The notes below the pieces were generated by a model, which was not told the origin of the DNA, made no database searches, and saw only the letters and a program-made list of their open reading frames with translations. Positions 1 to 59,081 of a stretch of DNA of 59,081 nt are shown piece by piece. The stretch is from positions 1-59,081 of the IMG/VR virus record IMGVR_UViG_3300027652_000001; one strand, 5' to 3'. Numbering within the stretch: the first letter of the stretch is position 1; each line of letters begins with the position of its first letter. This stretch comes from a virus. The translations under genes and the position numbers were made by a program.

Positions 1-99
1 AGCCCCGATCCGAACGCGCCAAAGAAGCCCGCGGCGTCCGAAGGTTCCGGCGGCCCATTCCGCTCGACTGAAGAGCAGGAGGCGATGCGCGACCGCGAG
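1..99. repeat. Left copy of an exact 99-bp terminal direct repeat (identical to 58983-59081). Either a circular-contig overlap or a short DTR.
   Basis: The string agccccgatccgaacgcgcc...gcgatgcgcgaccgcgag is read identically at both window ends. Confidence 0.95.
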
Positions 100-3860: not shown

Positions 3861-3864
3861 TGGA

Positions 3865-3885
3865 AATTATATACTTGACTACCTT
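3865..3885. repeat. Left arm of a perfect 21-bp inverted repeat (aattatatacttgactacctt). Contains a TATATAAT box on the minus strand just upstream of the gene at 3860.
   Basis: The reverse complement occurs exactly at 4621-4641. A partial third copy (gggaattatatactt) is at 11058-11072. Confidence 0.9.
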
Positions 3886-3900
3886 CGCAGGCGCTCCATT

Positions 3901-4590
3901 TCAAACTGTGCTACTGCACTCCGCTACGCGTTTGTACGGGATGAATTCGCCATCGTTGCTCACGTAGCCGTAGTGCTGGATAACGTGAGGCTGGCCGTCA
4001 CTGCGGGCCTTGTGTTGAGCTTCGTGTATTTCGTAATCGAGCGATTCCCACTCACGCCCAGGCATTCTCTTGTACCAAACACCGCGAAGTTGTTTAGTTT
4101 CGTATGCGTCCTGATTGTAGACCGGATAATGCCACGGTCCTTTCGGACCGAACCAGCACCAGCCATCCGTGACCTCCTTAGCTTCTACGTTACTCTCGCG
4201 ATACCAAGAAAGACCATATGGCGTTGCAGGGAATCGAGGCTTAGCAGGCCGCACCACCCAAGCGGTGAAACGGTGCGGAGGAAGACAAGGTTTCCCATCC
4301 GAAAATAGCGCTACTTCGACCGGCTGCCCAAGCGGTGGAGGATTTGAGACGGGGTTCCAACAGCGTGGCAAGGAGGAATCCCAGAAGTCAACGCCAAGTC
4401 CAATTTCACAACTTTCATTAATCGGGTCCTGAAATGGAAGTTGAACAATGGCTTCCAGGATTTGCCCGATCTCGAACGTCTCAACCGCTCTTTTTGAGAG
4501 TTGATAGACCGGCGCTGGTGTGACTGCTTTGGTATGCACGCGATGGTTAGCGTGGTCCACTTTAGTTACTTCAAGTTGCAATCTCATCAT
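3901..4590 (-). CDS. Hypothetical protein (229 aa, Trp/Pro-rich)
   Basis: ORF preceded by a strong SD (gaaggaga) 7 nt upstream of the ATG. Bracketed by the 21-bp inverted repeat. Confidence 0.8.
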   Translation of the reverse strand: MMRLQLEVTKVDHANHRVHTKAVTPAPVYQLSKRAVETFEIGQILEAIVQLPFQDPINESCEIGLGVDFWDSSLPRCWNPVSNPPPLGQPVEVALFSDGKPCLPPHRFTAWVVRPAKPRFPATPYGLSWYRESNVEAKEVTDGWCWFGPKGPWHYPVYNQDAYETKQLRGVWYKRMPGREWESLDYEIHEAQHKARSDGQPHVIQHYGYVSNDGEFIPYKRVAECSSTV

Positions 4591-4612: not shown

Positions 4613-4641
4613 TTGTCAATAAGGTAGTCAAGTATATAATT
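4613..4641 (+). promoter_or_regulatory. Right arm of the 21-bp inverted repeat (4621-4641). On the plus strand it forms a sigma70-like promoter: TTGTCA, 16-nt spacer, TATAAT.
   Basis: TTGTCA at 4613-4618 and TATAAT at 4635-4640. It points into the antisense of gene 4648-4962. Confidence 0.4.
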
Positions 4642-4647
4642 CCCCTC

Positions 4648-6597: not shown

Positions 6598-7869
6598 TCA
6601 CATCCCGTCAATAGCTTTGCAGATCTCGGCCACATCCCAATCTGTCGGGCTGAGGCTCCGGTATAGCTTCACGTTGCGCCCGTAGAACGCGGTCGTGGTG
6701 GCGGGTGGAAGCCCGAATTTCCAGTCGGACCGCAGCGGCAGTAGGATCAGCGTCGGGATTCCCAGGCTCGCTGCCAAGTGCGCAATAGCAGTATCGACGG
6801 TCACGATCAGTCGGCACTTCAACATGGTGAGCGCGGTGTGCTCCCAGTCCACGAGCAGCGAGTCGTCTTGCGTCACTCCGCGGGGAGCTTGGGAGACGCC
6901 CTCCCGGTGCATGTGCTTTCCCGATGGGACTAGCCCGACGACGCGCTCGCAGTTGGCCGCGAGGTGTTTGCCCACCCGGCTAGCGGTGAGCCTGTCCAGC
7001 GAGCGGATCTGGCGCATGACTCCGTTCTCTTCGGCCCGCCAGCAGAAACCGATCCAATCATTGGGCGGCGCCACGAGCCGGCCGCGCGGTTCCCAGTCGA
7101 GAGGAGGCGGGATGTCGGCCCACGTCTTCATGCTGTGGACCATCAGAGAAAGGTATGGAGTGCAGTGCGTGTACTGGGCGAGTTCGTCGTACTTGAACTT
7201 ATGTGAAATCGGTAGAACTCTAGGGAGCGTGTCACCGGTAGACAACCTCCTCCTGAAAACATGGCTGGTATATTCGAACATGCTATCCCACACCAGAATC
7301 GTAATCTGTGCGGCAGGCAACCACTCGATCCACCGCAAAAAGTTGAACCCATCGCCGAACCCACCCTCCGGCAGCACGAGCAACCGAGCGTCCGGCTCTC
7401 CCTTCCACGCGTGCAATCCCTGAAACGGCGTCCAAGTCTTGTTCAAACGGGCAGCTTCCCAGATGGGCCAGACGAATTGAAACTGCCCCAATCGCATCAA
7501 GGAGTATGCGAAGCCCAGCAGCGGTTCCCCTGCAGAGGAAACCGGAACGCCTGATTTTTCGATGCACTCTAGCGCACGCTGAAAGTATGGCGGCGCCTTA
7601 TCAAACTCTCCTAGGTCCTCGGAGATCTGCCCGAGGTTGGACCACGCTTCTGGGCGCGACAGATCCAGCGACATCGCCCGATGAAGCGTTTCCTTCGCTT
7701 CGAGGATCCGCCCCACCCCGCGTTGCGCCGCGGCGTAGTTGACCAGCGCTCCGTATGTGGGCGACTTATCGGCTTCGCGGCGAAGGATTGGAAGCGCCTT
7801 GCGCGGCTCGAACGCGGCGAGGTGCTGAAGTGCCTTTGAGCTCAATCTACTTCCACCTCGTACCACCAA
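6598..7869 (-). CDS. TPR-repeat protein fused to a GT-B glycosyltransferase domain (GT9 / heptosyltransferase-like)
   Basis: N-terminal TPR-type helices (EAKETLHRAMSLDLSRPEAWSNLGQISEDLGEFDKAPPYFQRALE). C-terminal motif VTVDTAIAHLAASLGIPTLILLP is typical of GT9-like nucleotide-sugar transferases. The start is uncertain; a TTG at 7845 overlaps the upstream stop. Confidence 0.6.
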   Translation of the reverse strand: MVVRGGSRLSSKALQHLAAFEPRKALPILRREADKSPTYGALVNYAAAQRGVGRILEAKETLHRAMSLDLSRPEAWSNLGQISEDLGEFDKAPPYFQRALECIEKSGVPVSSAGEPLLGFAYSLMRLGQFQFVWPIWEAARLNKTWTPFQGLHAWKGEPDARLLVLPEGGFGDGFNFLRWIEWLPAAQITILVWDSMFEYTSHVFRRRLSTGDTLPRVLPISHKFKYDELAQYTHCTPYLSLMVHSMKTWADIPPPLDWEPRGRLVAPPNDWIGFCWRAEENGVMRQIRSLDRLTASRVGKHLAANCERVVGLVPSGKHMHREGVSQAPRGVTQDDSLLVDWEHTALTMLKCRLIVTVDTAIAHLAASLGIPTLILLPLRSDWKFGLPPATTTAFYGRNVKLYRSLSPTDWDVAEICKAIDGM

Positions 7870-8072
7870 CGATTAGGCTCGTTTTTTACGACCATAAATC
7901 TGCGAGAGTCTTCGGGTAACCGAGGGTCAGCAAGGCAATCGTCGATATATTCTTGCTCCGTTGCCACGCGCTTCACTCTTGCGGGGATAGTCCTCTGGTT
8001 GGATCCGTATTCAAATTCAGGCAGATCTACGACGCTGCCGATTATTCGAGGCTCCAAAGATTCCACTATCAT
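7842..8072 (-). CDS. Hypothetical protein (76 aa)
   Basis: ATG 8072 overlaps the stop of the methyltransferase gene (ATGA). The longer ORF-track start at 8126 would overlap that gene. Confidence 0.65.
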   Translation of the reverse strand: MIVESLEPRIIGSVVDLPEFEYGSNQRTIPARVKRVATEQEYIDDCLADPRLPEDSRRFMVVKNEPNRWWYEVEVD

Positions 8073-8626
8073 ATGCTCCCCCAGTAGATAACTTCCGATC
8101 CGTCGAACAGAGCTTGCGGAGTGCATCCGATGTGAGTCGACATGAAGCCGTCAACCGCCCGCTGAATTCCCGGATGCGTCTCGTAATCGTCCAAGACAAC
8201 GACGCCACCGTTCACCAAATGGTGGGACAGCCAATCCAGCGCACACTTCGCAGACAGGTACAGGTCGCAATCCAAGTACGCCAGGACCACGCGGGCATTC
8301 TTGATGTCTCGCAAGGTTTCTTCGAAGCGGCCGACGACCGGCATGACGTTGGGGTAGCCACTCAGCACTTCGAAGATCTCCGCTTGCGGCTTGAACTTTC
8401 CCGGAGCATCGATATCCAGCCCCTCGATGTAATCCTCCGCTGGGATTCCCTGGAACGTATCGAACGCCCAAACGAATCGGTTCAACTGAGCCAGTTGCAC
8501 CGTAGTGGCCCCGGCATAGACGCCGAACTCGCAGATGTCTCCCGGGATGTGCTTGCGTTCTTCCAGCAGACGCGTTATTGTCGCCATGTGGGAACCAAGG
8601 ATTTCGATTTCAGCCACGCTCGTCAA
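8069..8626 (-). CDS. Class I SAM-dependent methyltransferase, TylF / macrocin-O-methyltransferase-like
   Basis: SAM motif GDICEFGVYAGATT and the TylF-type VLAYLDCDLYLSAKCALDWLSHHLVNGGVVVLDDYE. Confidence 0.75.
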   Translation of the reverse strand: MTSVAEIEILGSHMATITRLLEERKHIPGDICEFGVYAGATTVQLAQLNRFVWAFDTFQGIPAEDYIEGLDIDAPGKFKPQAEIFEVLSGYPNVMPVVGRFEETLRDIKNARVVLAYLDCDLYLSAKCALDWLSHHLVNGGVVVLDDYETHPGIQRAVDGFMSTHIGCTPQALFDGSEVIYWGSI

Positions 8627-11016: not shown

Positions 11017-11254
11017 AGTCACTTCACCCCATTTATGTTGATAGTGATCATTTTTATGGGAATTATATACTTTAGTCCCATGGTTGCTCGGGTTTGGAAT
11101 AAGTTCCGTCAGGTTGGCGGATTCGGCCATCGAACAGCCTCGCAGGGCCTTCGGCTTGTGGATTCTTCCACTGATGGTCTCCTTCGTGCCCGTACCATAG
11201 TTGGCATGGCCCTTTAAAAACGTGAATCTCATTGCATTGCATATCAAGCTCTCT

Positions 11255-11371: not shown

Positions 11372-11559
11372 GACTTCCTCCCCACGACGGCGGCAAGGTA
11401 CGCCATCCACATGTCGTCACCTATGTTGCGGAGCGGCGTCCGTTCCTCTGTCGGATCGCCACACGTCTCGCCAGTTTCACCCAAGTTCCGAGCGTTGTAA
11501 CCAGCTTCCAGTTCGGCGAGGTCCTCTTCCGTTAAGTCCTCGAAATACTCGGGGTCCAT
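11368..11559 (-). CDS. Hypothetical protein (63 aa). 5'-shortened paralog of 14001-14252.
   Basis: Shares DPEYFED...NIGDD-WMAYLA with the 83-aa paralog. The conserved FHEHGCND codons persist upstream but are cut off by an in-frame TAG. Confidence 0.65.
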   Translation of the reverse strand: MDPEYFEDLTEEDLAELEAGYNARNLGETGETCGDPTEERTPLRNIGDDMWMAYLAAVVGRKS

Positions 11560-11640
11560 GTCGTTACAGCCGTGCTCATGGAACTAGATCTTGGCACTGC
11601 GAGTGCTTTCCGGTGATGCAGGGCGTTGAATGGTAGGGCA

Positions 11641-14000: not shown

Positions 14001-14252
14001 TCACGCTATTCTATCCGCTAGGTACGCCATCCACTCATCGTCTCCGATGTTCGCGATGTTGGCGTCGTCCCAGTCTTCGCCGTTACAACCTGACCTTCTC
14101 CAGTCATTGTAGTCAGCCACCAATTGTTGAATCTCTTCATGCTCAATATCCTCGAAGTACTCAGGATCCATGTCATTGCAGCCGTGCTCGTGAAACTGCC
14201 TCGCGGCCTCATCAAGCAATCGGCTCGCAAGTATTTCTTGAGCGCGAGTCAT
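14001..14252 (-). CDS. Hypothetical acidic protein (83 aa). Full-length paralog of 11368-11559.
   Basis: HEHGCNDMDPEYFED ... NIGDDEWMAYLA. DNA at about 14150-14200 closely resembles about 11540-11590. Confidence 0.75.
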   Translation of the reverse strand: MTRAQEILASRLLDEAARQFHEHGCNDMDPEYFEDIEHEEIQQLVADYNDWRRSGCNGEDWDDANIANIGDDEWMAYLADRIA

Positions 14253-14815
14253 GCTGTCCTCGATTCTGCGCGAATGATCGCGGCCAAGTAAGCGTCGCGG
14301 TTGCGCGCGTTCTGAACCCTCCCGGACTGGTACGCCTGACGAATGGCGTCCCTAACACGCGTCCAAACAGGATTGAGAATACGTCGACCACTCGCGAGCG
14401 TGATGTGTTCGGCCGGCATCGCCACTTGCATCGGCTTGCGAGCTGGCTTGTTCACCCTTGGTTCTTCCGAAGGTTCTTCCTTTAAGGGTGGGGCCATTGG
14501 TGGGGCCATTGGTGGGGCCAAATCCTTAATAATTCGGTACATGCTGGTCTGGTTCGGACGCCGGATCACTTCGACGTATCCTTGGGAAACGAGCCACGCT
14601 AGCCATCGTTTTACGGATCGCACAGATGCCCGAATACGCTTTGCGATCTCCCGGGACATCCATGACTGGCCGGCGTTGCACAGGCCGAGCCTGCCCTTGT
14701 GGATAAGTCTGTGGATTAATCGGAAAAGATGAACTGCGCCGCGAGGGATCACGCCACAAGCTTTCTGGAGAGGGCCGGGCTTGTGGTTCCAGCCCCGCTC
14801 CGCGCTCGGCGCCAT
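14249..14815 (-). CDS. Winged-helix DNA-binding protein, replication-initiator-like
   Basis: HTH segment SWMSREIAKRIRASVRSVKRWLAWLVSQGYVEVIRR. A central linker APPMAPPMAPP is encoded by three phased iterons. Confidence 0.55.
   Translation of the reverse strand: MAPSAERGWNHKPGPLQKACGVIPRGAVHLFRLIHRLIHKGRLGLCNAGQSWMSREIAKRIRASVRSVKRWLAWLVSQGYVEVIRRPNQTSMYRIIKDLAPPMAPPMAPPLKEEPSEEPRVNKPARKPMQVAMPAEHITLASGRRILNPVWTRVRDAIRQAYQSGRVQNARNRDAYLAAIIRAESRTA
14487..14520. repeat. Three phased copies of GGTGGGGCCA (12-bp period) followed by an AT-rich stretch. Candidate origin iterons inside the initiator-like gene.
   Basis: ggtggggccatt ggtggggccatt ggtggggcca is read at 14487-14520, followed by aatccttaataattcgg. 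Confidence 0.5.
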
Positions 14816-16258: not shown

Positions 16259-16264
16259 GGCTAT

Positions 16265-16363
16265 TCATGCCCTTCGAACTTCTGGCACGGAGTTTCCCAG
16301 GATGCGCGCCCCGTGCTCACCGTCTCGGTTTTGTCGGATTCTCGTTAGATTCTCGTTATTCAT
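16265..16363 (-). CDS. Small ORF (32 aa) with a strong SD. Contains a perfect tandem 11-mer.
   Basis: aaaggagacaacgcgATG. gattctcgtta repeats twice at 16337-16358. Confidence 0.4.
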   Translation of the reverse strand: MNNENLTRIRQNRDGEHGARILGNSVPEVRRA

Positions 16364-16408
16364 CGCGTTGTCTCCTTTTCTCTGTTGTGCGTTCGTCATC
16401 GCAACACG

Positions 16409-16437
16409 ATATTCTCACATCGCTCGGCATCTGTCAA
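16409..16437 (-). promoter_or_regulatory. Strong sigma70-like promoter for the leftward early operon (TTGACA, 17-nt spacer, GAATAT with an upstream TG)
   Basis: On the plus strand tgtcaa lies at 16432-16437 and atattc at 16409-16414. Confidence 0.55.
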
Positions 16438-16457
16438 GCACTATCCACAGAAATAGT

Positions 16458-16485
16458 TTGACGTGTTGCGTTGTAACGTTGTAAT
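16458..16485 (+). promoter_or_regulatory. Candidate rightward promoter (TTGACG, 16-nt spacer, TGTAAT), back to back with the leftward one and pointing into an ORF-free region
   Basis: ttgacg at 16458-16463 and tgtaat at 16480-16485. Confidence 0.4.
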
Positions 16486-16886
16486 CAGCTTGTCGCCGCT
16501 CGTTTGTCGCAGTATTGTCGCAGTCCGTCTGTATCACCCACGCCAGGGCCGTTGCGGGTTCGCGTGTGCGTTCGGTGCGCGAGGGGATGCTGGGTATCCT
16601 CCCGCGTGGGGAGCGTGCGCCAGGGCTGATCGCTTGCGCCGCGGCCTGGCTGTCCGCCGGCTGTCCGGTGTCACGCGTCCTGAATTGTCCAAGGGTCGAA
16701 CGACTCGTGGGTTTACTCTTACGGTGCGGGTGTACGTTTATTTTTTTTGGGACCCTGAATTTTCTGGGGTTTGGGGTGCGCGTTTTGCGAGGCTGTCGGT
16801 CACTGAATTCGGAGGGTGAGCACACTTAACCCCCTATAATCCCCCGTAGAACAGCGGCCGGTACGCTGGTGCGCCGGTGGGTCCGC

Positions 16887-19042: not shown

Positions 19043-19170
19043 GGTCTGAAGGCGGGCCGGGACCTTGACCTACCGTCCCGCCGTCTCAGATGTGTTGCTA
19101 TCCAGTTGCAAGCTGGACACCCACAGTTTATGCCACGTTCCCCATTGCGTGTCAAGCGTATAATTCATCC

Positions 19171-20832
19171 ATGAAGAGATGGCTCATCTTTTTGTTCTGG
19201 CTGTGCGCTGGCCCCGCGTTCGCGCAGACACTCCGCATCTCGGGCTGGTGCGAGCAGGGTGCCCAGCAGATCAACGTCGGCGGGGTGCTGTCTTCGCCCA
19301 CGACGCTGGTCCAGGCGAGCTACCCGGCGTGTAGGGTGACCGTGTTCCAGGCGGGAACCATCACCAAAGAAACTATCTACGCCGACAACATGATGACGCC
19401 ACTGGCGAACCCTTTCACCCTCACGCCGGGGAATGGTTACTGGTTCTTCTACCCGGCCATGGACACCGATCACGTCGACATCACGTTTGACCAGGGGGGA
19501 ATTCCCACCCCCTACACGCTGGGGGACGTGGCGGCGGCCGGCGGGTCGGGCGGAGGTGGCGGTGGAGGACCAGGAACTGTAACACGCGTAACATTTCCCA
19601 CAATTCCCGCTTGGCTGACCGCTTCCGTGGCGACAAACACCACGACGCCGGCAATTTCGATTGTTGTGGCGACCGGGCAGGCCTCGAACCAGGTCATCGG
19701 AACGTGCGGGTCGGCCACCACTTTCGGACCGTGCTCGCTGGGCGCCACGGATCTACCAGGCACGATCGTCTACAACAATCAGGCCAACACGTACTCGACG
19801 GGTGGCCAGAACTTCGCCGCGGCCAGCTTCCTGACGATCCCGAGCGGGCCAGGGTATGCTCCTACCAACAGCGGCATGATCGGCTACGACACGACCGCGA
19901 ACGCCTACCGGCTGGGGATCGCAGGGACGGATTTCATCATCGCGCCGCTCCTGAACGGCGCTTTCACGGTCGGCCACTGCCTCGAATATTCGACCACCCC
20001 GGCGCCCTCGATAATCGATGCTGGATTTCCGTGCAGCATGGGAGGCGGCGGAGGCGGAAGTCCGCTGACGGTCCAGGTGGGCGGGACTTCGACAGGGACG
20101 GCCAGCGCCACGCTCAACTTCAATTCGGGGAGCGGCATCAACCAGACGTGCTCGTACAACGCGGGCGCCTCGCGAAACGATTGCACGCCCGCCCTGGACA
20201 CCGCCTACGCCTTGTCGCGCGCCACAGACCAAAATGGAACGGATGCGACCTGTATCGACGCGTCAGGGAGCGGGACTTCGTACACCTGCTCGGTCACGCC
20301 CGGGCTCACCGGGTACACGCGCAACATGCGGATATATTTTGTTCCGCAGACGACGAGCGGAGCGGCGCCCACGCTGAACGTGACGGGAATCGGACCGCTG
20401 CCCCTCCAGTGGAATATCAACGGGACACTGACAAACGTGGCGGCTGGTCAACTCGTCGCCGCGCTGCCCTACATGCTCACCGCCTGGGGAAGTCCTCCGA
20501 CCGCGCTCGTGGTGCAGCCGACCGCCTACGCACCGAACACCGTGCAATCTTGTGGGACGACTATCGCCTGCTCGCACACTATTCTGAGCGTCCCGCAGAT
20601 CGTGACCGGTAGTGTGGCTCTGTCGAGCGGCACCCCGAGCACGGCGGCCATCACCGGGCTGTCTCCGGGGTTCACGTCGGCATCCACCTACCACTGCACG
20701 GTGAGCGATGCGACGACAGCGGCGAATGAGGTGACGGTTCTCGCGGCGGGGTACGTTTCAGGGACGGCGTTCACGATCACCGGGCCGAGCACCGTTACGG
20801 ACGTAGTGCACTATATTTGCGTGGGCAACTGA
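19171..20832 (+). CDS. Secreted tail-fibre-like protein (553 aa) with a Sec signal peptide and poly-Gly linkers
   Basis: MKRWLIFLFWLCAGPAFA|QT. TATAAT (19159-19164) lies 6 nt upstream of the ATG. A central domain (LSRATDQNGTD ... TLNVTGIGPLPL ... GSPPTALVVQ) is shared with 31244-31939. Confidence 0.75.
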   Translation: MKRWLIFLFWLCAGPAFAQTLRISGWCEQGAQQINVGGVLSSPTTLVQASYPACRVTVFQAGTITKETIYADNMMTPLANPFTLTPGNGYWFFYPAMDTDHVDITFDQGGIPTPYTLGDVAAAGGSGGGGGGGPGTVTRVTFPTIPAWLTASVATNTTTPAISIVVATGQASNQVIGTCGSATTFGPCSLGATDLPGTIVYNNQANTYSTGGQNFAAASFLTIPSGPGYAPTNSGMIGYDTTANAYRLGIAGTDFIIAPLLNGAFTVGHCLEYSTTPAPSIIDAGFPCSMGGGGGGSPLTVQVGGTSTGTASATLNFNSGSGINQTCSYNAGASRNDCTPALDTAYALSRATDQNGTDATCIDASGSGTSYTCSVTPGLTGYTRNMRIYFVPQTTSGAAPTLNVTGIGPLPLQWNINGTLTNVAAGQLVAALPYMLTAWGSPPTALVVQPTAYAPNTVQSCGTTIACSHTILSVPQIVTGSVALSSGTPSTAAITGLSPGFTSASTYHCTVSDATTAANEVTVLAAGYVSGTAFTITGPSTVTDVVHYICVGN

Positions 20833-36079: not shown

Positions 36080-36513
36080 GTTCACTCGACCGATTTTTAG
36101 ACAAGGTTTCTCCGGAACCGAACAGCGGGTGTTGGCTTTGGCTGGGCGGGGTTATTAAGGGTGGATACGCCAGAATTGGACGCGAATACGCGCACCGTTT
36201 CTCATATGAACATTTCCGTGGTCCGATCCCGGAAGGTCTACACATAGACCATCTGTGCAGAGTTCGATCTTGCGTGAACCCGTATCATCTTGAGCCGGTG
36301 ACTCAGCGGGAGAACAGCAGAAGAGGAATGGCCGGTAAGTACCCGCGAGGTGCCAATTGCCGCTTCGGCCATCCCCTGTCAGGAGTCAATTTATACTTAG
36401 CCCCGAAGACGGGTATTCGCAATTGCAAGGAGTGTCAGAGAGCGCGGGTCATCAAGTATCGAGCAAAAAGGAACTCGCTTTGTATTCTAGGCGATCAGTT
36501 GAAGCCGGTTTAA
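36076..36513 (+). CDS. HNH endonuclease (HNH_3-type)
   Basis: SGCWLWLGGVIKGGYARIG ... HIDHLCRVRSCVNPYHLEPVTQRENSRRG. Confidence 0.8.
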   Translation: MSSLDRFLDKVSPEPNSGCWLWLGGVIKGGYARIGREYAHRFSYEHFRGPIPEGLHIDHLCRVRSCVNPYHLEPVTQRENSRRGMAGKYPRGANCRFGHPLSGVNLYLAPKTGIRNCKECQRARVIKYRAKRNSLCILGDQLKPV

Positions 36514-36530
36514 AGATTGCCGACCAGAGC

Positions 36531-38723
36531 TTGGGCTACGAGCTTCTGTATCACTCAATAGAAGCTTGCGACGAGGCCGCTGCTCACTTTGATGATAAGC
36601 GTCATCGTCACGTAGAGGAGTACGGGGAAGCTCCCAACGCTCCAAAAATGAAGTTCTCCCCAGACGAGATCAAGTGGAGAGAGAACGAAAAATTCCTTTG
36701 CCAAATCGACTATCTTTACTTCGCTACCCGTTACGCTCGAATTTTGTCTGCTGATGACGAGGTGATCCATTATAATCCCAATCTGGCGCAGCTCGTGGTT
36801 AACGATGCTCGCGCCGAGCAGGAAGATTTAGGCTGGGCCATCATGCAGATGTGGCTGAAGGGAAGACAGTGTGGGATAACGACCGACTCCCAAATCGCGC
36901 TCGGCCACCGGACCTATTTCTTTGACAACATCACGGCGCTTAGCGGATCTTCCGACAAAGAGCGCAGTAAAGATATGTTGGACAAATTCAAGGCTCTCTA
37001 CGACTGGATTCCGTATTGGCTCAAGCCAGCGATGACGCGTGACCGCATGGGTACGCGCATGGAGTTTGGAGAACTTAACTCCAAACTCATCGTGCAGCAC
37101 GGCTCTCAGAAATATGATATCGGGCGCGGTAACACGCCCAGCGTAGTACATCTTTCGGAGTGCGCCACGTTTTTGAACGCGGAAGATTTGATCGATGCGG
37201 GACTGGTTCCCGCCGTCCACGAGAGTCCGAGAAAACTGGTGATCCTAGAAAGTACCGGAGAAGGTCCCTACGGCTGGTGGTACAAGACTTGGGTCCATTG
37301 CAAAAAGTTGTACTGGAAAGGGCAGGCCAAATTCAGGCCGGGGTTCATTCCTTGGTTCGTGGCATCAGACCTCTACCCCACAGTGACTTGGTTAAAACGA
37401 TCCTTTCGTCTGGATATGCGTACCGATGACGCTGACGCTGTCCGTTCAGCCGCACGAGAGAAACTCAGAGCGCAGGGCTGGAAACCTCAGGGAGTCACGA
37501 TCGCGCACGCCGAGCGGGCCAGGAAGTTTATTCACGCCAACGATCTATTACGCCGTCACTTTCCCGAGAACTGGTCGATGCCGCTGGAGCAAATGTACTT
37601 CTGGGAAGTGATGAGGGCTGAGTATCAGGCCAAGAAGATTCTCGCGCGATTCCTGCGAGAGTTTGCCTCAGACGACCTGGAGTCCTTCGCGGCATCTGGC
37701 GAGAGCGTGTTCGATGTCGACACAATCAACGATTACAACAACTCCTGCCGCGAGCCGGTCGGCGTGTTCGGGTTCCGCGCGCCCATTCACCTGATCCCGC
37801 CGCGCCTCCAGGCCGACGAGAACGACCGTGACAAAACGAAGCGAATCATCAAAGTCGGTCCCTACGAACTCGTTCCGCTGCGCTGGCAGGGCTGGCAGGA
37901 GAGCGATCCTACCGGAAAGCTACTGATCTTCGAGTGGCCGGAATACGGCGAAGAGTACGGGTTCGGCGTGGACACTTCGGACGGCATCGGGCAGGATCGG
38001 ACTGTCCTCGAGGGTCTGCGTAAAGGATCTCTGACCCGCGTCGACGGGCAGATTTGCGAGTTTGCCTCCGAGTACGTGAACGCCAATGACTTTGCGGCCA
38101 TCTGCCATTGTGTCGGCCTGTTCTACCAGGGAGCCTCCGCGCGTCAACCGAAGATGGCAATTGAGACCGGGCTTAACGGCGAAGTGACGCAACTCGAGAT
38201 GCGCAAGATGGGCTGGGCGAACTTCCACTCATGGGTGCGCTACGACCGCAAGAAGATGAATCCGAAGGACGCCGTTCGCATCGGCTTTGTGACGAATCGC
38301 TGGTCGCGGCCGATGCTGATTGATTACATGATCAAGGCGCTACGCGATGGCGACCTGGACATTAACTCGCCAGAGTTCGTGCGCGAGATGCAGGCCCTAC
38401 ACCGCGACGAGGGCATGCAATCAGCCCGCGCAGAACAGGGGCAGCATGATGACCGGTTCATGGCACTCGGTATTATCTTCCTCTCGTTGCATATACTGGA
38501 ACTTACTGGGAAGGCGCAGAGCGTCAGTTATCTGCGCCAGCAGCGCGAACAGGAGGCGTCGCCGATGTATCGAGAGGTCCTGGCAGGCGACGACTACGCG
38601 CCGCTCGTGATCAGCCCCCAGCAGGCGGCACGCAGCGCGAGTCCGGCGTTGCGAGAGTTCTTCGCCGGGCAGGCGGTCGGAGCGCATCCGGGGGCGAGCG
38701 GAGGATGGGAGGAAGAGACATGA
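36531..38723 (+). CDS. terL: Terminase large subunit
   Basis: Walker-A-like KGRQCGITT, Walker-B-like VVHLSECATF, and nuclease-domain motifs GVDTSDGIGQD and HDDRFMALGI. The start is uncertain (TTG 36531 or ATG 36648); the ORF-track start at 36357 overlaps the HNH gene. Confidence 0.8.
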   Translation: MGYELLYHSIEACDEAAAHFDDKRHRHVEEYGEAPNAPKMKFSPDEIKWRENEKFLCQIDYLYFATRYARILSADDEVIHYNPNLAQLVVNDARAEQEDLGWAIMQMWLKGRQCGITTDSQIALGHRTYFFDNITALSGSSDKERSKDMLDKFKALYDWIPYWLKPAMTRDRMGTRMEFGELNSKLIVQHGSQKYDIGRGNTPSVVHLSECATFLNAEDLIDAGLVPAVHESPRKLVILESTGEGPYGWWYKTWVHCKKLYWKGQAKFRPGFIPWFVASDLYPTVTWLKRSFRLDMRTDDADAVRSAAREKLRAQGWKPQGVTIAHAERARKFIHANDLLRRHFPENWSMPLEQMYFWEVMRAEYQAKKILARFLREFASDDLESFAASGESVFDVDTINDYNNSCREPVGVFGFRAPIHLIPPRLQADENDRDKTKRIIKVGPYELVPLRWQGWQESDPTGKLLIFEWPEYGEEYGFGVDTSDGIGQDRTVLEGLRKGSLTRVDGQICEFASEYVNANDFAAICHCVGLFYQGASARQPKMAIETGLNGEVTQLEMRKMGWANFHSWVRYDRKKMNPKDAVRIGFVTNRWSRPMLIDYMIKALRDGDLDINSPEFVREMQALHRDEGMQSARAEQGQHDDRFMALGIIFLSLHILELTGKAQSVSYLRQQREQEASPMYREVLAGDDYAPLVISPQQAARSASPALREFFAGQAVGAHPGASGGWEEET

Positions 38724-39441: not shown

Positions 39442-39683
39442 AATATCGCAAGAAACCAGTTGTGATTGATGCGATGTGTTGGGACGGAACCAACGTCTCG
39501 GATCTACGCCAGTTTTTAGGTGGGTTCTCCGAATGGAGCCTCGTCAACAGCGACCACGTCGAGATCAAGACGTTAGAGGGGAATCACCTCGCTAATCCTG
39601 GTGACTGGATCATCAAAGGCGTCAAGGGAGAGTTTTATCCCTGCAAGCCTGATATCTTCGCCGCTACATACGAGCGAACCTGA
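39438..39683 (+). CDS. PGDYG-domain phage protein (81 aa)
   Basis: KKPVVIDA ... ANPGDWIIKGVKGEFYPCKPDIFAATYE. Confidence 0.6.
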   Translation: MKYRKKPVVIDAMCWDGTNVSDLRQFLGGFSEWSLVNSDHVEIKTLEGNHLANPGDWIIKGVKGEFYPCKPDIFAATYERT

Positions 39684-41728
39684 TGCCTGGACCGTCCGAT
39701 TACGCGATTCCTTCCTACCTCGACCAACTCGCCGACAAGCGCGGCATCCAACACTTGACCCTCGGACGCCTGAAGGAACTGCGCGACACCGGGCGGGCGT
39801 TCCTGGAATGTCAAGCGGCATGGCAGGAGATCCCGCGCGCCTACGACATTCTCTCGTTCGACAGCGCTCCGCTGCGCGTGTCCGGCTACTCGACAATTTC
39901 GGTCAACCGGATCAAGCGCGACTTCCGCGACCTAGTGGCGACGATCTCGAACCTGAAGCCAACCGGCCAGGCGGTCACCCACAAGGAAGAGGCAAAGAAC
40001 TCCATCTGGCGGCTGAACCAGATGAAACAGATCTGGTGGCGAAAGACGGCGCAAGATCGCAAATATCGGGAAGGTTGCCAGTACGCGTGCGGGCTGGGCA
40101 CCGGTTATATCGAACCGTGGTGGGATCCGAATTTTTACGGCTACAACCGTGGTGAGATCTCGTGCAAGACGGGCGGCCCATCGTCGGTTCTTCCGGTCAT
40201 GATGACGGAAGATAATGACCTGCAGAAAGCCTACGCGGTCACGATCCCCGAAGAGGTTCCGCTACATCTGGTGCTCTCCAACTATCCCGCGTTCGCCGGG
40301 ATGATTGAGCCATCGCGCAACTTCCCCGGCTGGATTCAGCGCGCGTGGGACAAGGTGCGCGGCTCGGCGCGGCAGGCGAATGGCGTGATGGGCGTGCTGG
40401 AAACCCCGCAGCGCTCGGTAGGGCGCGAGATGCCGATGGTCGATGTGTACACGACCTACATCATGGACCCGAGCGTGAACAACACCGGGCACGAGATCAT
40501 GATGGGCGATCCGGGGACGAGTTGGGAATACAAAGTGCCGTCCATCGGCAGCGAGATTCCTTCTGGCATTCGCACAAAGTCCGGTCAGATGCTCATGAAG
40601 CGAGCGACCGAAGAGGATGCCCGGTTGTTCCCCTTGCGGCGCCGAGTCATCTGGACGGACACCTGCATCCTGAAGGATGGGACTAGCCCATACCTGCATG
40701 GCCGCGTGCCACGTGTGCAACTGCGCTTTGATGACTACCCGTGGGATTTCCTGGGGACCTCGATCATCCATGATACGTGGCGGATCCAGAAAGCCATCAA
40801 CCAAATCTGGCGTGCGGTGATTGATAGCTTGCTCGTTCGATTGCAGCCCCCGCTCAAGTACGATCCGAACGTGTTGGACGCGACCGCGATGGCGCGCATC
40901 AACACGCGCATCCCAGCGCAGACTATCGCCGCATCGCTCGGCATGGGTGACCCGGTCACGCCGCTGCTACCCGTCCAATTCTGGGACGTTCCCGCGTGGA
41001 TCATTCAAGTCATCGGATTGCTCAAGGGAGAACTGGACGAGTTGGCCGTAGTCAAGGACCTGATGGCCGTCGCCAAGGCCAAACAGATCCCCAGCGCCGA
41101 TTCCATTGAGAAGATCATGGAAGCGGCCGGCCCGGTCGTGCAGGACATCGCGCGCGGCGGCGAAGTGGCGTGCCAGCAGTTTGACGAACTGTTCTACCCA
41201 ATGGCGATTCAGTTCTGGCCCGCTGGCAAGGTGTTTCAGGAACTCGGCGAGGAGGGCGCGATCAAGGAATCGTTTGACTTCCAGCCGGGAGAGTTGATCC
41301 CCTCGCACTTGCCCGACGAGGACAACCAGCAACCGTCCATCTACTCTAAGTGGGAGCGCGCCCGGTGGATGATCGAGCAGTTGAGCTACGACATTGAACC
41401 GTACTCGCAGGCCAGCGTCTCGCGCGTGGGCCGAAACCTCACGTTGCTCCAGGCAAAGAAAGCGGGGGTGTGGGTGTCGAACAACACGATCGGCAAGGGA
41501 CTCGGCCTCAACATGGGCGAGTTGCCGCCGATGCGCGACGGACAGCCAGCGGTGAGCGAGCCCGACAAGTTCATGGTGGAACAGGAGCAGGCCCACGCGC
41601 TCGCGGAAGACTTGCAGCAGGGCCAGCAGCAAGGGCAGCAGCGCGGCAGGCCGGCCACCAACCAGAACCCGCCTGCCGTTAAATCGAAGGACAATGGGAC
41701 TCGCAGCACGACGGTGACCAGCCGATAA
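39683..41728 (+). CDS. Portal protein (681 aa), assigned by position and size
   Basis: Large ORF between the terminase and scaffold/capsid genes. No motif verified. Confidence 0.6.
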   Translation: MPGPSDYAIPSYLDQLADKRGIQHLTLGRLKELRDTGRAFLECQAAWQEIPRAYDILSFDSAPLRVSGYSTISVNRIKRDFRDLVATISNLKPTGQAVTHKEEAKNSIWRLNQMKQIWWRKTAQDRKYREGCQYACGLGTGYIEPWWDPNFYGYNRGEISCKTGGPSSVLPVMMTEDNDLQKAYAVTIPEEVPLHLVLSNYPAFAGMIEPSRNFPGWIQRAWDKVRGSARQANGVMGVLETPQRSVGREMPMVDVYTTYIMDPSVNNTGHEIMMGDPGTSWEYKVPSIGSEIPSGIRTKSGQMLMKRATEEDARLFPLRRRVIWTDTCILKDGTSPYLHGRVPRVQLRFDDYPWDFLGTSIIHDTWRIQKAINQIWRAVIDSLLVRLQPPLKYDPNVLDATAMARINTRIPAQTIAASLGMGDPVTPLLPVQFWDVPAWIIQVIGLLKGELDELAVVKDLMAVAKAKQIPSADSIEKIMEAAGPVVQDIARGGEVACQQFDELFYPMAIQFWPAGKVFQELGEEGAIKESFDFQPGELIPSHLPDEDNQQPSIYSKWERARWMIEQLSYDIEPYSQASVSRVGRNLTLLQAKKAGVWVSNNTIGKGLGLNMGELPPMRDGQPAVSEPDKFMVEQEQAHALAEDLQQGQQQGQQRGRPATNQNPPAVKSKDNGTRSTTVTSR

Positions 41729-44384: not shown

Positions 44385-45545
44385 ATGGCTTTCGATCCAG
44401 CACTTGACGAGCTCAGCGCCACAACTTTGTACGAGATCTGGCCTCGCACAGTTCAAGACAATTTTTTCAACGACGTGGCGTTCCTCGCCTACATCCGCGA
44501 TCACTGCCTTGCGACGTTCGGCGGCGGGTCGACGATGCAGCAGACCTTCCTCTACGCGCCGCTGATCACCAACTCCTACGGGATCGGCGCGCAGTTCAAC
44601 TTGGAAAAGGTCCAGACCATCGCGGGCACTCGGTTCGATCCGAAGTACTACGTGTCGATTTATCCGGAGTACATGGAGAACATCGACGTGCTGAACGTCG
44701 GGCCCAACGCCGTGTTCTCGCTGCTGAACCTTAACCTCGCGAACATGATGAACTCGATCTGCGCGGACGTGGCGATCGCGCTCTCGCTGCACGGCCAGCC
44801 GAGCGGTACCGGCATCGTGGGTAACCGGCCGTACGATATTAACGGCTGGATCGAGTTGATCAACGACGGGATTACGCCCGGGTGGGACGGCTCGATCTTC
44901 ACGGCCTACGGCGGGCAGGCGCGAAACGGCGCCATCGGCTCCACGTTCAATTCGATCCCGCGCTATTGCGGTGACTCGACGACGACGACCGGCAACACTT
45001 CGGCGGCCGGGGCCCTGACTTATTCGGTTCTCGAAGAAGGCTACTGGGATGCGTCGGTCGGTCGTGAGCGGCCCGACCTCGGCGTGACGACCAAGCGCGC
45101 ATTCGCCTTCATCAAGGAAAAGATCCAGCCCCTGCAGCGCGGCGAATTAGTGACAAAGCAGGATGCCATCTGGGGCGTTTCGGGAGTCGCGATGAACGAC
45201 GCGATCATCTTCCCCGACGACTACTTCCCGAGCGCCGCTTACGGCGTCAACGATCCGATCCTCGGCAACTACCTTACCAGCACGTTCACTGTACCAGCCG
45301 GCGTGTCGAGCAAGAGCAACCTGCCGGCGACTGGTGCGATCGCCACGGTCGGCGAGGTGTTCACGTGGTTCAACACGACCAAGTTGCAGTTCCGGTTGTC
45401 GTCCAGCCCGCGGTATCAGTTCGGCCTGTGGGGATTCTACCCGGCCGCCGACAGCACCAAGGTCGTGGCGCGCACGCACGCGGCAGTCAATCTGGTGGGC
45501 CTGAGCGCCCGCCACCAAAAGCAATTTTATGGAATCGCAGCTTAG
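44385..45545 (+). CDS. Major capsid protein (386 aa), assigned by position and size
   Basis: Follows the scaffold gene and is followed by a hairpin. Fold not verified. Confidence 0.65.
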   Translation: MAFDPALDELSATTLYEIWPRTVQDNFFNDVAFLAYIRDHCLATFGGGSTMQQTFLYAPLITNSYGIGAQFNLEKVQTIAGTRFDPKYYVSIYPEYMENIDVLNVGPNAVFSLLNLNLANMMNSICADVAIALSLHGQPSGTGIVGNRPYDINGWIELINDGITPGWDGSIFTAYGGQARNGAIGSTFNSIPRYCGDSTTTTGNTSAAGALTYSVLEEGYWDASVGRERPDLGVTTKRAFAFIKEKIQPLQRGELVTKQDAIWGVSGVAMNDAIIFPDDYFPSAAYGVNDPILGNYLTSTFTVPAGVSSKSNLPATGAIATVGEVFTWFNTTKLQFRLSSSPRYQFGLWGFYPAADSTKVVARTHAAVNLVGLSARHQKQFYGIAA

Positions 45546-50865: not shown

Positions 50866-53800
50866 GTGCCAAACTACAATAAGCAAAAACAGCGCCTGGC
50901 ATTCAAGGGCGTGAATCTCAACGCGGCAGTAGACGCGATCCCTCCCGATCAACTCGGCATCGCGACCAACGTGCGCCCGACCCAACAGGGAACCCTCGGC
51001 ACGCGACCCGCAATCGCGCCATTCATCACGCCAGTCGGAGCAGTCAATCCGATTCACAGCATAAAGACATTCTCGGCGTCTGGCGTCACGCGACGATTCA
51101 CTGGAGCGGTTGCCAATTTGTGGATGGACACCGCGCTTGTGGACACCGGCTACAGCGGCAATCCCCTGAGCTTCGCGGCCTACCAGCCGTCGCAAGCCGT
51201 CCAGCCGTTCCTCTACGTGGCTGACAGCGCGCGCTATCGGAAGTTTCGCGCATCGGACGGGGCAAAGTTCAACGTGGGGATAGTGCCGCCGCCCGGCCCA
51301 CCGGACGCGAATCTAATTCAGCCGCTCTACACATCTGTAAACGAGTTTGACAGCGCTCCTGGCTGGGGCGCGGGTGGCACGGCGGGCGCTCCCACGGCAG
51401 TCGATCGCGTTCCTGCGGGCACGACGGTTGCGGCGATTCTGTACGACGTGGGGTCCACCGGCTGGGCGTGCGTGGCCTTCGAGACCCCGTCGACGACTTG
51501 GCTGACGAAGGGCGCAAGCATTTACATTGAAAACGAACTGTCGAAGGTCTCCGACATGATTGCGCAGAGTTCGGATTCAACTACGACGATTGCGGCGATC
51601 CAATACGACACCGGGGCCAGCGGAGCGTGTTGTTTCACGCTCGCCAGTTCCACCGAGAACCTTTCGCGCGATACCTTCCTCCAGCTAGGCTCCGAGAACG
51701 TTCGGATCTTGTCGGTAGCAATCGGCGAGGACAACACGGTGAGCCTTCGATGCGTCACGGTCGGAACGCACGCGGCTGGCGAGGGCGTGACATTTTACAA
51801 CTGCGCGCGCATGTATCTGACGGTGAACCACTCGGTCGGCGCCGCCGTGCTCGGAAATTGTCTCACGTCTACCGTCACGGTCGGGCTGGGAACGCTGACC
51901 CTCCCGCTCGGCATGGTGCGCGATCTCTCGCAGATCAACGGGCGCCCGCTCACAACAGATGATTGGATGCACATCAGTTTGCTGTTCGACAACCTCGACA
52001 ACCTTTCGGACGTGCGCATTCTGCTCGACGTCGACAACACGACAAACGACTTCACCCATAATTTTTACTACGCAGACATCACGGCGAACGTTCTGCAGCA
52101 GGCATCGAGCGGCGCGGCGGCGGTCGTGACTGCCGGATCCACCGCTTTGCAGGCTACAGGCACCCAGGCGCAGCTGCAGGCGCTCTACGCGCAAGCAGAA
52201 GAGTACGCGGCGGCGGGAAACTACGTGGAAGCCGCTGCCCTCCAGAACACCATCTCGCAGTTGAATGCGCAGATTAACGCGCAGCTCGTCACTGGCGCAT
52301 CGCAGTGGTCGGAGATTTTCGTCCCGCTCTCGGCGCTGACTCGAGTCGGCAACGATCAGACGGTTGGGCTTTACAACGTCAAGGCGATTCAGATTCAGAT
52401 TGTCTGCACCGATACCATCAACATCTCGATCGACTCGTGGTGGTGTGGCGGGACCTATGGGCCGAACGCGCCGCAAGCCATCAATCCCGAGAATCCGATC
52501 AAGTACTGCTACCGCTATCGCTCTACGATCACCGGCGCGCAGAGCACGTGGAGCCCACTAACACGCGGGGGAATCTTCGCCGAGCGGCAGGGCATCGGAA
52601 TCACCGGGGCGGCATACAGCACTGACCCGCAAGTGGACACGATCGATTTCGCGCGGGTTGGCGCTAGCATCAATGGGACCCCTCAGTATTTGGCAAGCGT
52701 GGCGAACAACACGGCGGGCGGGTTTGCTACCTACGTGGACAATTTCCAAGATGCGGAGTTGGGCGACCAGATCATCCCAGGCGACAACCAGCCTTGGCCG
52801 GTCCAGCAACCCCCGATCATCGGAACGTGTTCCGTGGTAGGCACCACGGTTTTTGCGACGTCGGTGACAATCCCCACGAATCTCTGCCAAGGAACCAACG
52901 TTCTCATTAACGGCCAGGAGACCGTGATCCGCGGCTTGCCGGGCACCAACACGTTTCAGGTCGAGGACAATATCGACACAGCGAACGGCGTGAGCCTCCA
53001 GATTTGGAGCCCGACGACGTTCGGCAACCCACTCCCGTTTGAGGCTGGTCCGTTTGACGAATCTATCTTCGCGGCCGGCGACCCGGTGAATCCAGGCCGG
53101 GTCTATTTCGCCAACCGAACGAATCCGGACACCGCGGCGACATCCAACTTCGTGGATCTCACGAGCAGCGCCGAACCGATCTTAGGAATCTGCGTTTGGA
53201 ACGGGTACGTTGTCGCGATGACTGCCGAACAGTTCTTCATCGGAACCACGAGCGGCCAAGTCGGCAACCCCTACGCGTTTACCACGACCGGCGTCGGCTG
53301 CGGATTGCTTGCGCCGTGGGCCTTCACGACTGGACCGGGCATATTCTTCTGGACGCGCAATGGGATCGCCGTTACGGAACTCGGCCCCGCAACTCCGATC
53401 AGTTCCGCCGATCTCTATCCATACCTGCCGCACGAGGGCATTCCCGGACAAGCGGTGAACGGCTACCTCCCGCCGATGCTCAACGTCATGCCGCGGCTGG
53501 GCTACTGCAAAAACGGCTGGCTCTATTTCGACTTCGAGGATTCGGGCGGCAACCAGAAGACGCTCGCATTCGACACGACCAAGCCGGGATGGTGGTTTGA
53601 CTGCTACACGCCTGCCGTCATGCTGCACTACCAGGACGAAGCGGAGAACAGCAGCCTGGTGCTGTGCGGTTGCGCGGATGGCACCCTTGAGCAATTCTCG
53701 ACGGCGTCGGCCGACACCGGGGGGCCGATCACTTGCCAGGCGCGACTCGGTTCGCAGAACTACGGCGATCTGCGGTCACTCAAGCAGGTAATCGATCTTG

Positions 53801-58713: not shown

Positions 58714-59081
58714 CGAATCTGATCGACGCCGAACTGACCAAGAAGCGCGATGAGCGCGTGGCAAAGCTCAACGCCTACGCCTCGATGCTGGGCATGCCCG
58801 ACGACAAGGTTGCGCCCGAGAAGAAAAACCAGTACCTTCAGTTGCTCACCGGCGAGGCTCCGAAGGGCGGCAAGGACCTGCTGCAGCTCATGGGCCCGCA
58901 CCTGCTGAAGATGGGCGGTAAATCGAAAACCGAACAAACCGCGCAAAAGGCGCAGGAGTCACCCGGCGATGCGGATCTCGTCAGCCCCGATCCGAACGCG
59001 CCAAAGAAGCCCGCGGCGTCCGAAGGTTCCGGCGGCCCATTCCGCTCGACTGAAGAGCAGGAGGCGATGCGCGACCGCGAG
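58701..59081 (+). CDS. N-terminal part of the junction-spanning 571-aa ORF (continues at nt 100 / nt 1)
   Basis: ATG 58701 is preceded by an in-frame TAA. The frame stays open to the window end and is in frame with 85-1434 after removing the 99-bp overlap. Confidence 0.8.
   Translation, partial: MGLLTNLIDAELTKKRDERVAKLNAYASMLGMPDDKVAPEKKNQYLQLLTGEAPKGGKDLLQLMGPHLLKMGGKSKTEQTAQKAQESPGDADLVSPDPNAPKKPAASEGSGGPFRSTEEQEAMRDRE
58983..59081. repeat. Right copy of the exact 99-bp terminal direct repeat
   Basis: Identical to 1-99. Confidence 0.95.

Follow-up and report, generated by a model that had tools for sequence, protein, structure and literature searches.

The lambda pL/OL region spans a few hundred non-coding bp and separates two gene sets that share a strand, cI-rex and the N/recombination operon; it carries the strong promoter and the leader element of the early-left operon, which encodes recombination functions. 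Small RNAs of the CpxQ, DapZ and SroC type, either stand-alone or derived from a 3' untranslated region (UTR), have a short conserved seed 5' of a hairpin and a long U-tract, the rest being variable. Serine resolvase sites (res), such as those of Tn3/gamma-delta and Sin resH, include several short TGTC boxes near the recombinase operon promoter; each res subsite pairs two 12-bp half-sites, inverted about a central dinucleotide (TGTCYNNTA, the half-site consensus of gamma-delta, was used here as a lead only), the site abuts or overlaps the recombinase promoter, and Sin site II uses direct repeats. Origins of the iteron type, as in lambda ori, P4 ori/crr and theta plasmids, have at least three iterons of ~17–22 bp, an AT-rich unwinding element and, often, DnaA boxes. 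To our knowledge, almost nothing is known of gene regulation in Acidobacteriota and their phages. Here, a 523-nt gap between genes (positions 16364 to 16886) was examined in the virus record IMGVR_UViG_3300027652_000001 (IMG/VR); the whole stretch of 59,081 nt that was analysed is referred to as the window.

The gap resembles lambda pL/OL in its size, in its location between gene sets on the same strand, and in containing a promoter and a leader element of an operon that encodes recombination functions. However, no repressor, operator triplet or nut-type boxA/boxB was identified, and the conserved block found here lies upstream of the -35 element rather than overlapping the promoter and is common to chromosomal recombinase genes. 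The gap also has an extra module, comprising a 15-mer and a T-tract, which points away from the operon. The gap is a truly non-coding and evolutionarily conserved control region, in which the promoter of an operon that includes a small serine recombinase gene is combined with an upstream module that is most economically read as a small RNA. For this reading as a whole, a probability of about 0.4 was assigned.

The small serine recombinase (222 amino acids (aa); Resolvase domain and a partial Recombinase domain, PF07508), which is encoded 0.6 kb to the left of the gap, was the useful anchor for finding relatives. Use of the methylase as anchor yielded 80 loci without shared synteny or DNA similarity, p95 yielded one homologue in an unrelated context, and p137 was an orphan. 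Only two other ~59-kb Acidobacteriota (Bryobacterales) phage lineages were found to carry the region, namely L086 (the same phage as L087, L105 and L111; recombinase 62–63% identical) and L213 (the same phage as L214 and L215; recombinase 62% identical). In both, the homologous non-coding region is upstream of the recombinase-bearing operon and its conserved islands occur in the same order, but the intervening and surrounding genes differ, the early regions of these phages being highly mosaic. L173, a piece of a Bryobacterales chromosome, also has a partial copy of the region. When all 217 fetched loci were searched using an nhmmer profile built from the three phages, no homologue beyond L173 emerged, extra pattern scans of viral contigs gave chance matches only (L210–L212, L218), and no comparable downstream module was seen at the other recombinase loci. 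All four independent copies of the core module are within ~0.6–2 kb of a recombinase homologue, and the association with the serine recombinase that was proposed in the initial annotation is thus supported by co-occurrence in four of four copies.

The features of the gap and its left-hand border are listed below in window coordinates.

16265–16363, minus strand: candidate 32-aa open reading frame (ORF) with a good Shine-Dalgarno sequence (AAGGAGA), a codon log-odds of -0.23 and no frame preference
16382–16408, minus strand: conserved leader element, CGTGTTGCGATGAC..GCACAACAG, just downstream of the -10 and capable of forming a hairpin
16409–16458, minus strand: leftward sigma-70-type promoter, with -35 TTGACA (16437–16432), a 17-nt spacer and -10 GAATAT (16414–16409)
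16458–16485, plus strand: rightward promoter candidate, with TTGACG (16458–16463), a 16-nt spacer and TGTAAT (16480–16485)
16490, 16504 and 16515, plus strand: TTGTCGC boxes at 14- and 11-nt spacing, within 16490–16521
16522–16681, plus strand: poorly conserved GC-rich spacer of variable length, with the island GTTGCG at 16551–16556 and a 24-nt deletion in L213
16648 and 16659, plus strand: GGCTGTCCG boxes, in the GC-rich spacer
16680, 16755 and 16803: CTGAATT boxes
16682–16696, plus strand: near-invariant 15-mer GAATTGTCCAAGGGT
16697–16748, plus strand: candidate intrinsic terminator, made up of a hairpin-capable spacer of ~41 nt and the T-tract TTTATTTTTTTT (16737–16748)
16741–16748, plus strand: T8 run, within the T-tract
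16749–16886: non-conserved right-hand part, 3' of the p137 gene, with no conserved blocks shared with L086 or L213

When the alignment of the three phages (A5) is read on the minus strand from upstream to downstream, the order begins with A-tracts, ~45 nt that are not conserved, and CACCCT(T/C)GGACAAT(T/A)C. Next come the GC-rich spacer, which varies in length and contains the small island GCGCAAC, then TGCG(A/C)CAAACGAGCG, which represents the TTGTCGC boxes on the opposite strand, a block of ~27 nt, AACTATTTCTGTrGATwGTGmTTGACA, and the leader element GTGTTGCGATGAC..GCAACAG immediately after the -10.

The initial annotation had found no credible ORF in the gap and had suggested that homologous genomes be inspected for a conserved one. 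The two homologous phage lineages keep the region and conserve no ORF in it, and the ORFs that span the 15-mer are non-homologous and use three different frames in the three phages; the non-coding assignment therefore stands. ORFs were called here by gene callers, which could point to a hidden protein-coding gene such as the 136-aa ORF on the minus strand or the 104/118-aa ORFs on the plus strand. However, on identical copies of the contig the callers chose the 136-aa minus-strand ORF in one and the 104-aa plus-strand ORF in the other. The three gap ORFs also have negative codon log-odds (-0.18 to -0.20 log2 per codon) without frame preference, on a scale where confident large genes score +0.1 to +0.3 and the small neighbours p95 and p188 score lower. 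No Pfam match was found for the gap ORFs, and the sole PHROG match, to the 136-aa ORF, was insignificant (E=0.036), making a gene at this location extremely improbable.

The leftward promoter has a 17-nt spacer, within the 16–18 nt expected of sigma-70-type promoters, a -35 that matches the consensus at six of six positions and a -10 that matches at three of six, with A2 and T6 present. A conserved 21-bp block, AACTATTTCTGTGGATAGTGC (16458–16438), which includes a partial dyad, ACTAT-N8-ATAGT, abuts the -35 on its upstream side, and a 27-nt stretch that includes the -35 is 93% identical to L086. Weight-matrix scores at the homologous position were 10.75 in the window, 12.23 in L086 and 10.46 in L213, compared with a null 95th percentile of 10.23. 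The L086 copy (TTGACA-18-TAAAGT) was accepted by a consensus scan, and L213 has TTGACA with a spacer of 16 or 18 nt. In the window, this stricter scan accepted neither the leftward nor the rightward promoter, the leftward one failing on its -10. The block occurs once in the window, and no second copy was found there.

A related block, ACTwTwTCTACAGAATTrGTATTGAC-N17-cATAcT, precedes 38 of 98 recombinase homologues in Bryobacterales chromosomes. At these loci the geometry is fixed, with the ATG ~7 nt past the -10, and the chromosomal recombinase mRNAs are therefore leaderless. As the leftward promoter predicted in the initial annotation is conserved at the homologous position in all three phages and its block is found upstream of recombinase homologues, the comparison indicates that this cassette is real and heads the recombinase operon. 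Its distribution further indicates that the small serine recombinases of this family ancestrally had this cassette as their promoter. In the window, three small ORFs separate the promoter from the recombinase gene, and the phages would have inserted the leader and small ORFs between the two. The partly dyad-symmetric block is a possible binding site for a dimeric regulator, which could be the recombinase.

A sequence resembling a DnaA box, CTATCCACA (8/9), is present at 16443–16451 inside the promoter block, and the perfect box TTATCCACA was seen in the non-coding stretch of L173 (~6897–6905). The window box is not conserved in L086 or L213 and is probably coincidental.

The leader block GT(G/A)TTGCGATG..GCAACA, as seen in alignment A5, is kept in all three phages. 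Further downstream, within the 32-aa ORF, a perfect 11-nt tandem duplication (GATTCTCGTTA x2) was found at 16337–16358. As the repeat unit is not a multiple of three, this argues for leader RNA rather than a coding sequence, and in the relatives leaders of ~100–300 nt precede the first gene. The 32-aa ORF is therefore doubtful and, on these grounds, more likely to be part of a long 5' leader. If it is not a gene, the non-coding stretch may span 16259–16886.

The chromosomal arrangement recurs across Bryobacterales loci (L112–L190) as the promoter block, a leaderless serine recombinase gene of 215–225 aa, a tyrosine integrase gene and a tRNA gene on the opposite strand, for example in L181 (5900–7950) and L136 (3540–5490). 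The tyrosine integrase gene directly follows the recombinase gene in 22 of 99 loci and, in the loci scanned for tRNAs, its 3' end abuts a tRNA gene, mostly for tRNA-Arg. Several copies of the recombinase are often present in one Bryobacterales genome.

On the opposite side of the promoter, the stretch from ~16459 to 16748 appears to have a function of its own, as a module best read on the plus strand. L086/L111 and the chromosomal L173 have exactly the 15-mer of the window, and L213 differs from it at 2 of 15 positions (GTATTGTCCGAGGGT); the flanks of the 15-mer have diverged. The chance of the match to L173 in ~1 Mb of loci was estimated at roughly 0.002. No second significant copy was found in the window, the two-mismatch copy at 53683–53697 being within chance. 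The T-tract begins 41–47 nt past the 15-mer in four of four lineages, and the sequence between them is not conserved. T8 is the only intergenic A/T run of at least 7 nt in the 59-kb genome. The hairpin predicted between the 15-mer and the T-tract had energies of -22.4 kcal/mol in L086 (z -2.4), -25.7 in L173 (z -3.3), -12.4 in the window (z -0.35) and -13.2 in L213 (z 0). In L086 and L173 it is significantly stable and directly abuts the T-tract; in the window and L213 it is weak. The L173 copy was accepted by a terminator scan. The opposite strand folds less stably in four of four lineages, clearly in three and marginally in L213 (-12.4). The conservation of the upstream module suggests that it is functional.

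In L173, the module is ~600 nt downstream of the recombinase gene and in the same direction, and the 15-mer and terminator would close the recombinase transcript. Directly past it, at 7548–8402 on the plus strand, is a 284-aa ORF with a C-terminus that by eye resembles an OmpR/PhoB-type winged helix (..HQAVYRLRQSF..). OmpR/PhoB-type proteins bind direct repeats 11 bp apart, like the TGTC boxes. No tblastn signal for a tyrosine-integrase remnant was obtained in the gap or in the 600-nt region of L173.

The gap had been described as repeat-rich, and this is borne out. Four different 7-mers occur at least three times in it compared with 0.41 in dinucleotide shuffles (P=0.006), and its repeat content is in the top 1.5% of genome windows. 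Within 350 nt there are seven copies of TGTC(C/G) on the plus strand and none on the minus strand, which is the genome-wide maximum (mean 0.74). TTGTC(G/C), as in the TTGTCGC boxes, recurs in the relatives, strongly in L086, partly in L173 and weakly in L213, and every relative also has the T-run. The motif coordinates given earlier proved correct apart from those of C5-TATAAT-C5, which is at 16830–16845 and not 16836–16853. This motif and the CTGAATT boxes at 16755 and 16803 fall in the right-hand part, and this ~140 bp is, on comparison with the two other phages, unconserved spacer. The several hairpins that had been noted do not exceed what composition gives, as the fold z was +1.5 for the plus strand and 0.0 for the minus strand.

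In the phages the module is directed away from the operon promoter, and from this orientation a divergent plus-strand RNA of roughly 200–260 nt would be expected. The upstream module is accordingly put forward, tentatively, as a plus-strand small RNA with a terminator. Such an RNA, of ~200–260 nt, would be transcribed away from the operon promoter and end at the intrinsic terminator, and the 15-mer, immediately 5' of this terminator, would stay single-stranded as the conserved functional or seed segment of the RNA. In L173, the recombinase transcript would end with the same 15-mer and terminator, a pattern known from 3' UTR-derived small RNAs. The arrangement of a short conserved segment 5' of a hairpin and a T-tract, in an otherwise variable sequence, is that of CpxQ, DapZ and SroC, and the position of the L173 module at the 3' end of the recombinase transcript is that of the 3' UTR-derived members. 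Unlike these, the present module is known from sequence only.

Several results weigh against a small RNA. No plus-strand promoter conserved in the three phages was found. The rightward candidate, TTGACG/TGTAAT, overlaps an 8-nt tandem repeat (CGTTGTAA x2, 16469–16484), scored 10.23, equal to the null 95th percentile, and is rejected by the consensus scan for the G at position 2 of its -10. Its sequence is absent or gapped in L086 and L213, where the best plus-strand scores (7.5 and 8.2) are within the null range. This promoter, which the initial annotation had paired with the leftward one, is thus confined to the window. A weaker plus-strand candidate, TTGTCG-17-TATTGT, is formed by the first TTGTCGC box and TATTGT, and is matched at the equivalent position in L086 by TTGTCC-17-TTAACT; both score within the null range. 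The claim of a non-coding RNA also gained nothing from searches at the RNA level. No match at the Rfam gathering score was found in the window or in 10 related loci, and with E up to 10 only chance-level hits appeared (bxd_4, E 3.8; SAM-SAH, E 7.6). The 523-nt region folds no better than shuffled sequences (z +1.53 for the plus strand and -0.02 for the minus strand), and the putative 267-nt RNA has no excess stability (z +0.83 in the window and -0.39 in L086). The GC-rich spacer likewise shows no excess folding and no informative covariation. A two-sequence consensus fold contained 15 double changes, but the alignment was unreliable and no usable covariation could be drawn from it, and a four-sequence consensus fold of the terminator module reached only -1.67 kcal/mol. 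No conserved target of the 15-mer in trans, and none of at least 9 nt, was found in the sequence searched. In the window itself the hairpin is weak, with an inner stem that ends ~20 nt short of the T-run, and was not called by the terminator scan. As only four independent copies are available, the comparative inferences are also thin.

The module could instead act as DNA, as an array of binding sites in the same orientation for a phage or host protein, including accessory sites of the res type. In this case the TTGTC(G/C) boxes and the 15-mer, which contains ATTGTCC, would be bound and the A-tract would provide a bend. The array would be a remote operator or enhancer of the operon promoter, or a set of accessory sites for multimer resolution with the promoter block as the crossover or autoregulatory site. 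The boxes are on one strand, two pairs of them are at 11-nt spacing, and their nearness to the promoter of a serine recombinase operon recalls the TGTC boxes of res sites. They begin ~30 bp upstream of the promoter block of that operon, with three small ORFs between the promoter and the recombinase gene. Similar boxes are found in L086 and partly in L173, and the nearness of all four modules to a recombinase homologue would also suit a DNA site. The partial dyad of the promoter block has a 2-bp centre, which is seen as ATCT-GT-AGAT in L213 and TTCT-AC-AGAA in the chromosomal consensus. No tyrosine integrase was detected in this phage and the small serine recombinase was the only recombinase detected, which would fit a plasmid-like prophage in need of multimer resolution; the lack of support at the RNA level adds to this. 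However, the res site suggested in the initial annotation fails on anatomy, since the boxes and the 15-mer have none of the dyad symmetry of serine recombinase subsites and are all direct repeats on one strand (7 vs 0), the only partial dyad being in the promoter block. Box number and spacing are not conserved, with only two boxes in L213. The array, of ~260 bp, is 30–260 bp upstream of the -35 and at least 0.6 kb from the recombinase gene, no second copy of the block or the 15-mer is present in the window, and the C-terminal domain of the recombinase is a partial PF07508 one, not the HTH_7 of res-site resolvases. In L173, the module is downstream of the recombinase gene and apart from the promoter block of that gene, and a T-tract at a fixed distance after a stable hairpin (L086 and L173) is more typical of a terminator. 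A DNA-level array is therefore considered rather unlikely. Readings of the region as sigma-54, LexA-box, IHF or PhoB-box sites were also tried by eye, and nothing conserved was found in support of them.

Another possibility is that only the promoter and leader are functional, the rest being spacer or decayed mosaic remnants plus a terminator that is incidental and would shield the promoter from antisense transcription. This agrees with the poor conservation and variable length of the central GC-rich part, the lack of a structural signal, the unconserved right-hand 140 bp and the mosaicism of the early regions. It is judged quite unlikely, as the 15-mer, T-tract and box island are kept in order in three phages despite different flanking genes, the 15-mer and T-tract are kept in an unrelated chromosomal context as well, and a bare terminator does not need a near-invariant 15-mer. 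The module has also been considered as a replication origin, with the TTGTCGC boxes binding an initiator, the T/A-tract unwinding and the strong promoter activating. As in iteron origins, direct repeats at helical spacing lie by a conserved T/A-tract and a strong promoter. A putative O-like initiator, p188, which weakly matches replication-initiator families (E ~1e-4 to 1e-5), is encoded 1.6 kb downstream in the same operon, the L173 copy is upstream of YdaU-like and DnaB-like replication genes, and the sequences resembling DnaA boxes in the window and L173 could be counted in its favour. However, the repeats are few, of 7 nt rather than 17–22 nt, and not conserved in number, the AT-rich patch of only ~12–20 nt is too short for a real unwinding region, the DnaA-like box is missing from L086 and L213, and the cumulative GC skew has no turning point here. 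A better, lambda-like candidate was found inside p188 at 14487–14520, and the origin or iteron role that had been proposed for the gap is accordingly improbable. The product of the p188 gene (14249–14815, minus strand) is a winged-helix protein of 188 aa that weakly matches O-like initiators in PHROG, and a perfect 12-nt tandem repeat of 2.8 units (GGTGGGGCCATT on the plus strand, encoding APPMAPPMAPP) is located in its middle. This repeat is a candidate lambda-like origin inside an initiator gene.

For the preferred reading of the module as a small RNA, a more specific version can be stated, in which the 15-mer and terminator are the business end of an undescribed RNA coupled to the small serine recombinase family. 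It is suggested by the finding of the module only beside recombinase homologues: in three phages it diverges from the promoter of the recombinase, and in a Bryobacterales chromosome it is at the 3' end of the transcript of that gene. This version is considered a long shot. A literature search turned up no description of an RNA-guided serine recombinase. If it were true, the RNA could regulate the recombinase or serve as its cofactor; alternatively, it could be a phage-borne, trans-acting small RNA common to Acidobacteriota phages and chromosomal islands.

A separate non-coding element was observed in soil contigs (L089–L091, L093–L097, L099, L101–L103 and L106–L109), which share a near-identical promoter, TTTTTGACTTTTTCTGTCGATTGTGCTTGACA-N16-TAGAAT, followed by a conserved stretch of at least ~50 nt, CTACATCTGGTATGAGGATGGTGAACTCATCGCCATCCCTAGTGAAGC, with no ORF after it. 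A ddl-like gene lies upstream of it, and the next gene is in convergent orientation. No Rfam match was found in the four of these contigs that were searched, and the CTACATCTGGTATGAGGATGGTGAACTCATCGCCATCCCTAGTGAAGC stretch is a candidate host small RNA.

The window is a tailed-phage genome, as seen from the following genes.

36357–38723: large terminase
39683–41728: portal
44385–45545: major head protein

A perfect direct repeat of 99 nt is present at the ends of the window (1–99 and 58983–59081), which shows the assembly to be circular (or terminally redundant), with a length of 58,982 bp, and identical copies of the contig were present in three metagenome samples. No match to deposited phages was found using blastn, at the protein level the relatives of the recombinase in deposited phages were all below 31% identity, and no tRNA or tmRNA was found. 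Nearly all homologues of the recombinase come from metagenome-assembled Bryobacterales, Bryobacteraceae and Terriglobia genomes. The host of this uncultured ~59-kb phage is therefore, on the origin of those homologues, most likely an acidobacterium of the Bryobacterales group.

The gap had been placed between two early operons with back-to-back promoters. This layout is incorrect, as the genes on both sides of it, p137, p50 and a methylase gene upstream and the 32-aa ORF, p95, p45 and the recombinase gene downstream, are on the minus strand, and the gap is thus not a divergent intergenic region. Besides the small serine recombinase and the putative O-like initiator, the leftward operon encodes methylases, ERF and exonucleases.

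All three phages encode a Gly/Thr-rich protein whose hydrophobic stretch at the N-terminus by eye resembles a signal peptide (window, 19090–20832, plus strand; L086, 1040–3547, minus strand; L213, 561–2228, minus strand), on the strand opposite to the surrounding early genes. In L086 the gene directly adjoins the non-coding hub and is truly divergent, whereas in the window and L213 opposite-strand genes are inserted between them. Within the early operon of the window, the gene at 14001–14252 (p83) is duplicated, with a paralogue near 11400–11600, and two stretches of 83–86% DNA identity were found between 11393–11585 and 14017–14197. A 24-nt inverted repeat (3862–3885 and 4621–4644; 96% complementary) brackets a gene for a 229-aa protein (3901–4590), and a third, direct copy is at 11046–11079; the core of the repeats is GGAATTATATACTTGAC. 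They could represent a second promoter class (an AT-rich block followed by TTGAC) or bound a segment that is invertible or mobile.

The region supplies a host assignment for an uncultured 59-kb phage and a well-supported native promoter cassette for this lineage, a TTGACA -35 with a conserved upstream block, and the same cassette drives leaderless recombinase genes in many Bryobacterales genomes. It also supplies a short and sharply conserved non-coding module, the 15-mer and T-tract, that is a candidate small RNA, terminator or protein-binding site. If this module is an RNA linked to the serine recombinase, it would represent a new regulatory pairing; otherwise, the gap would be an ordinary early-operon control region.

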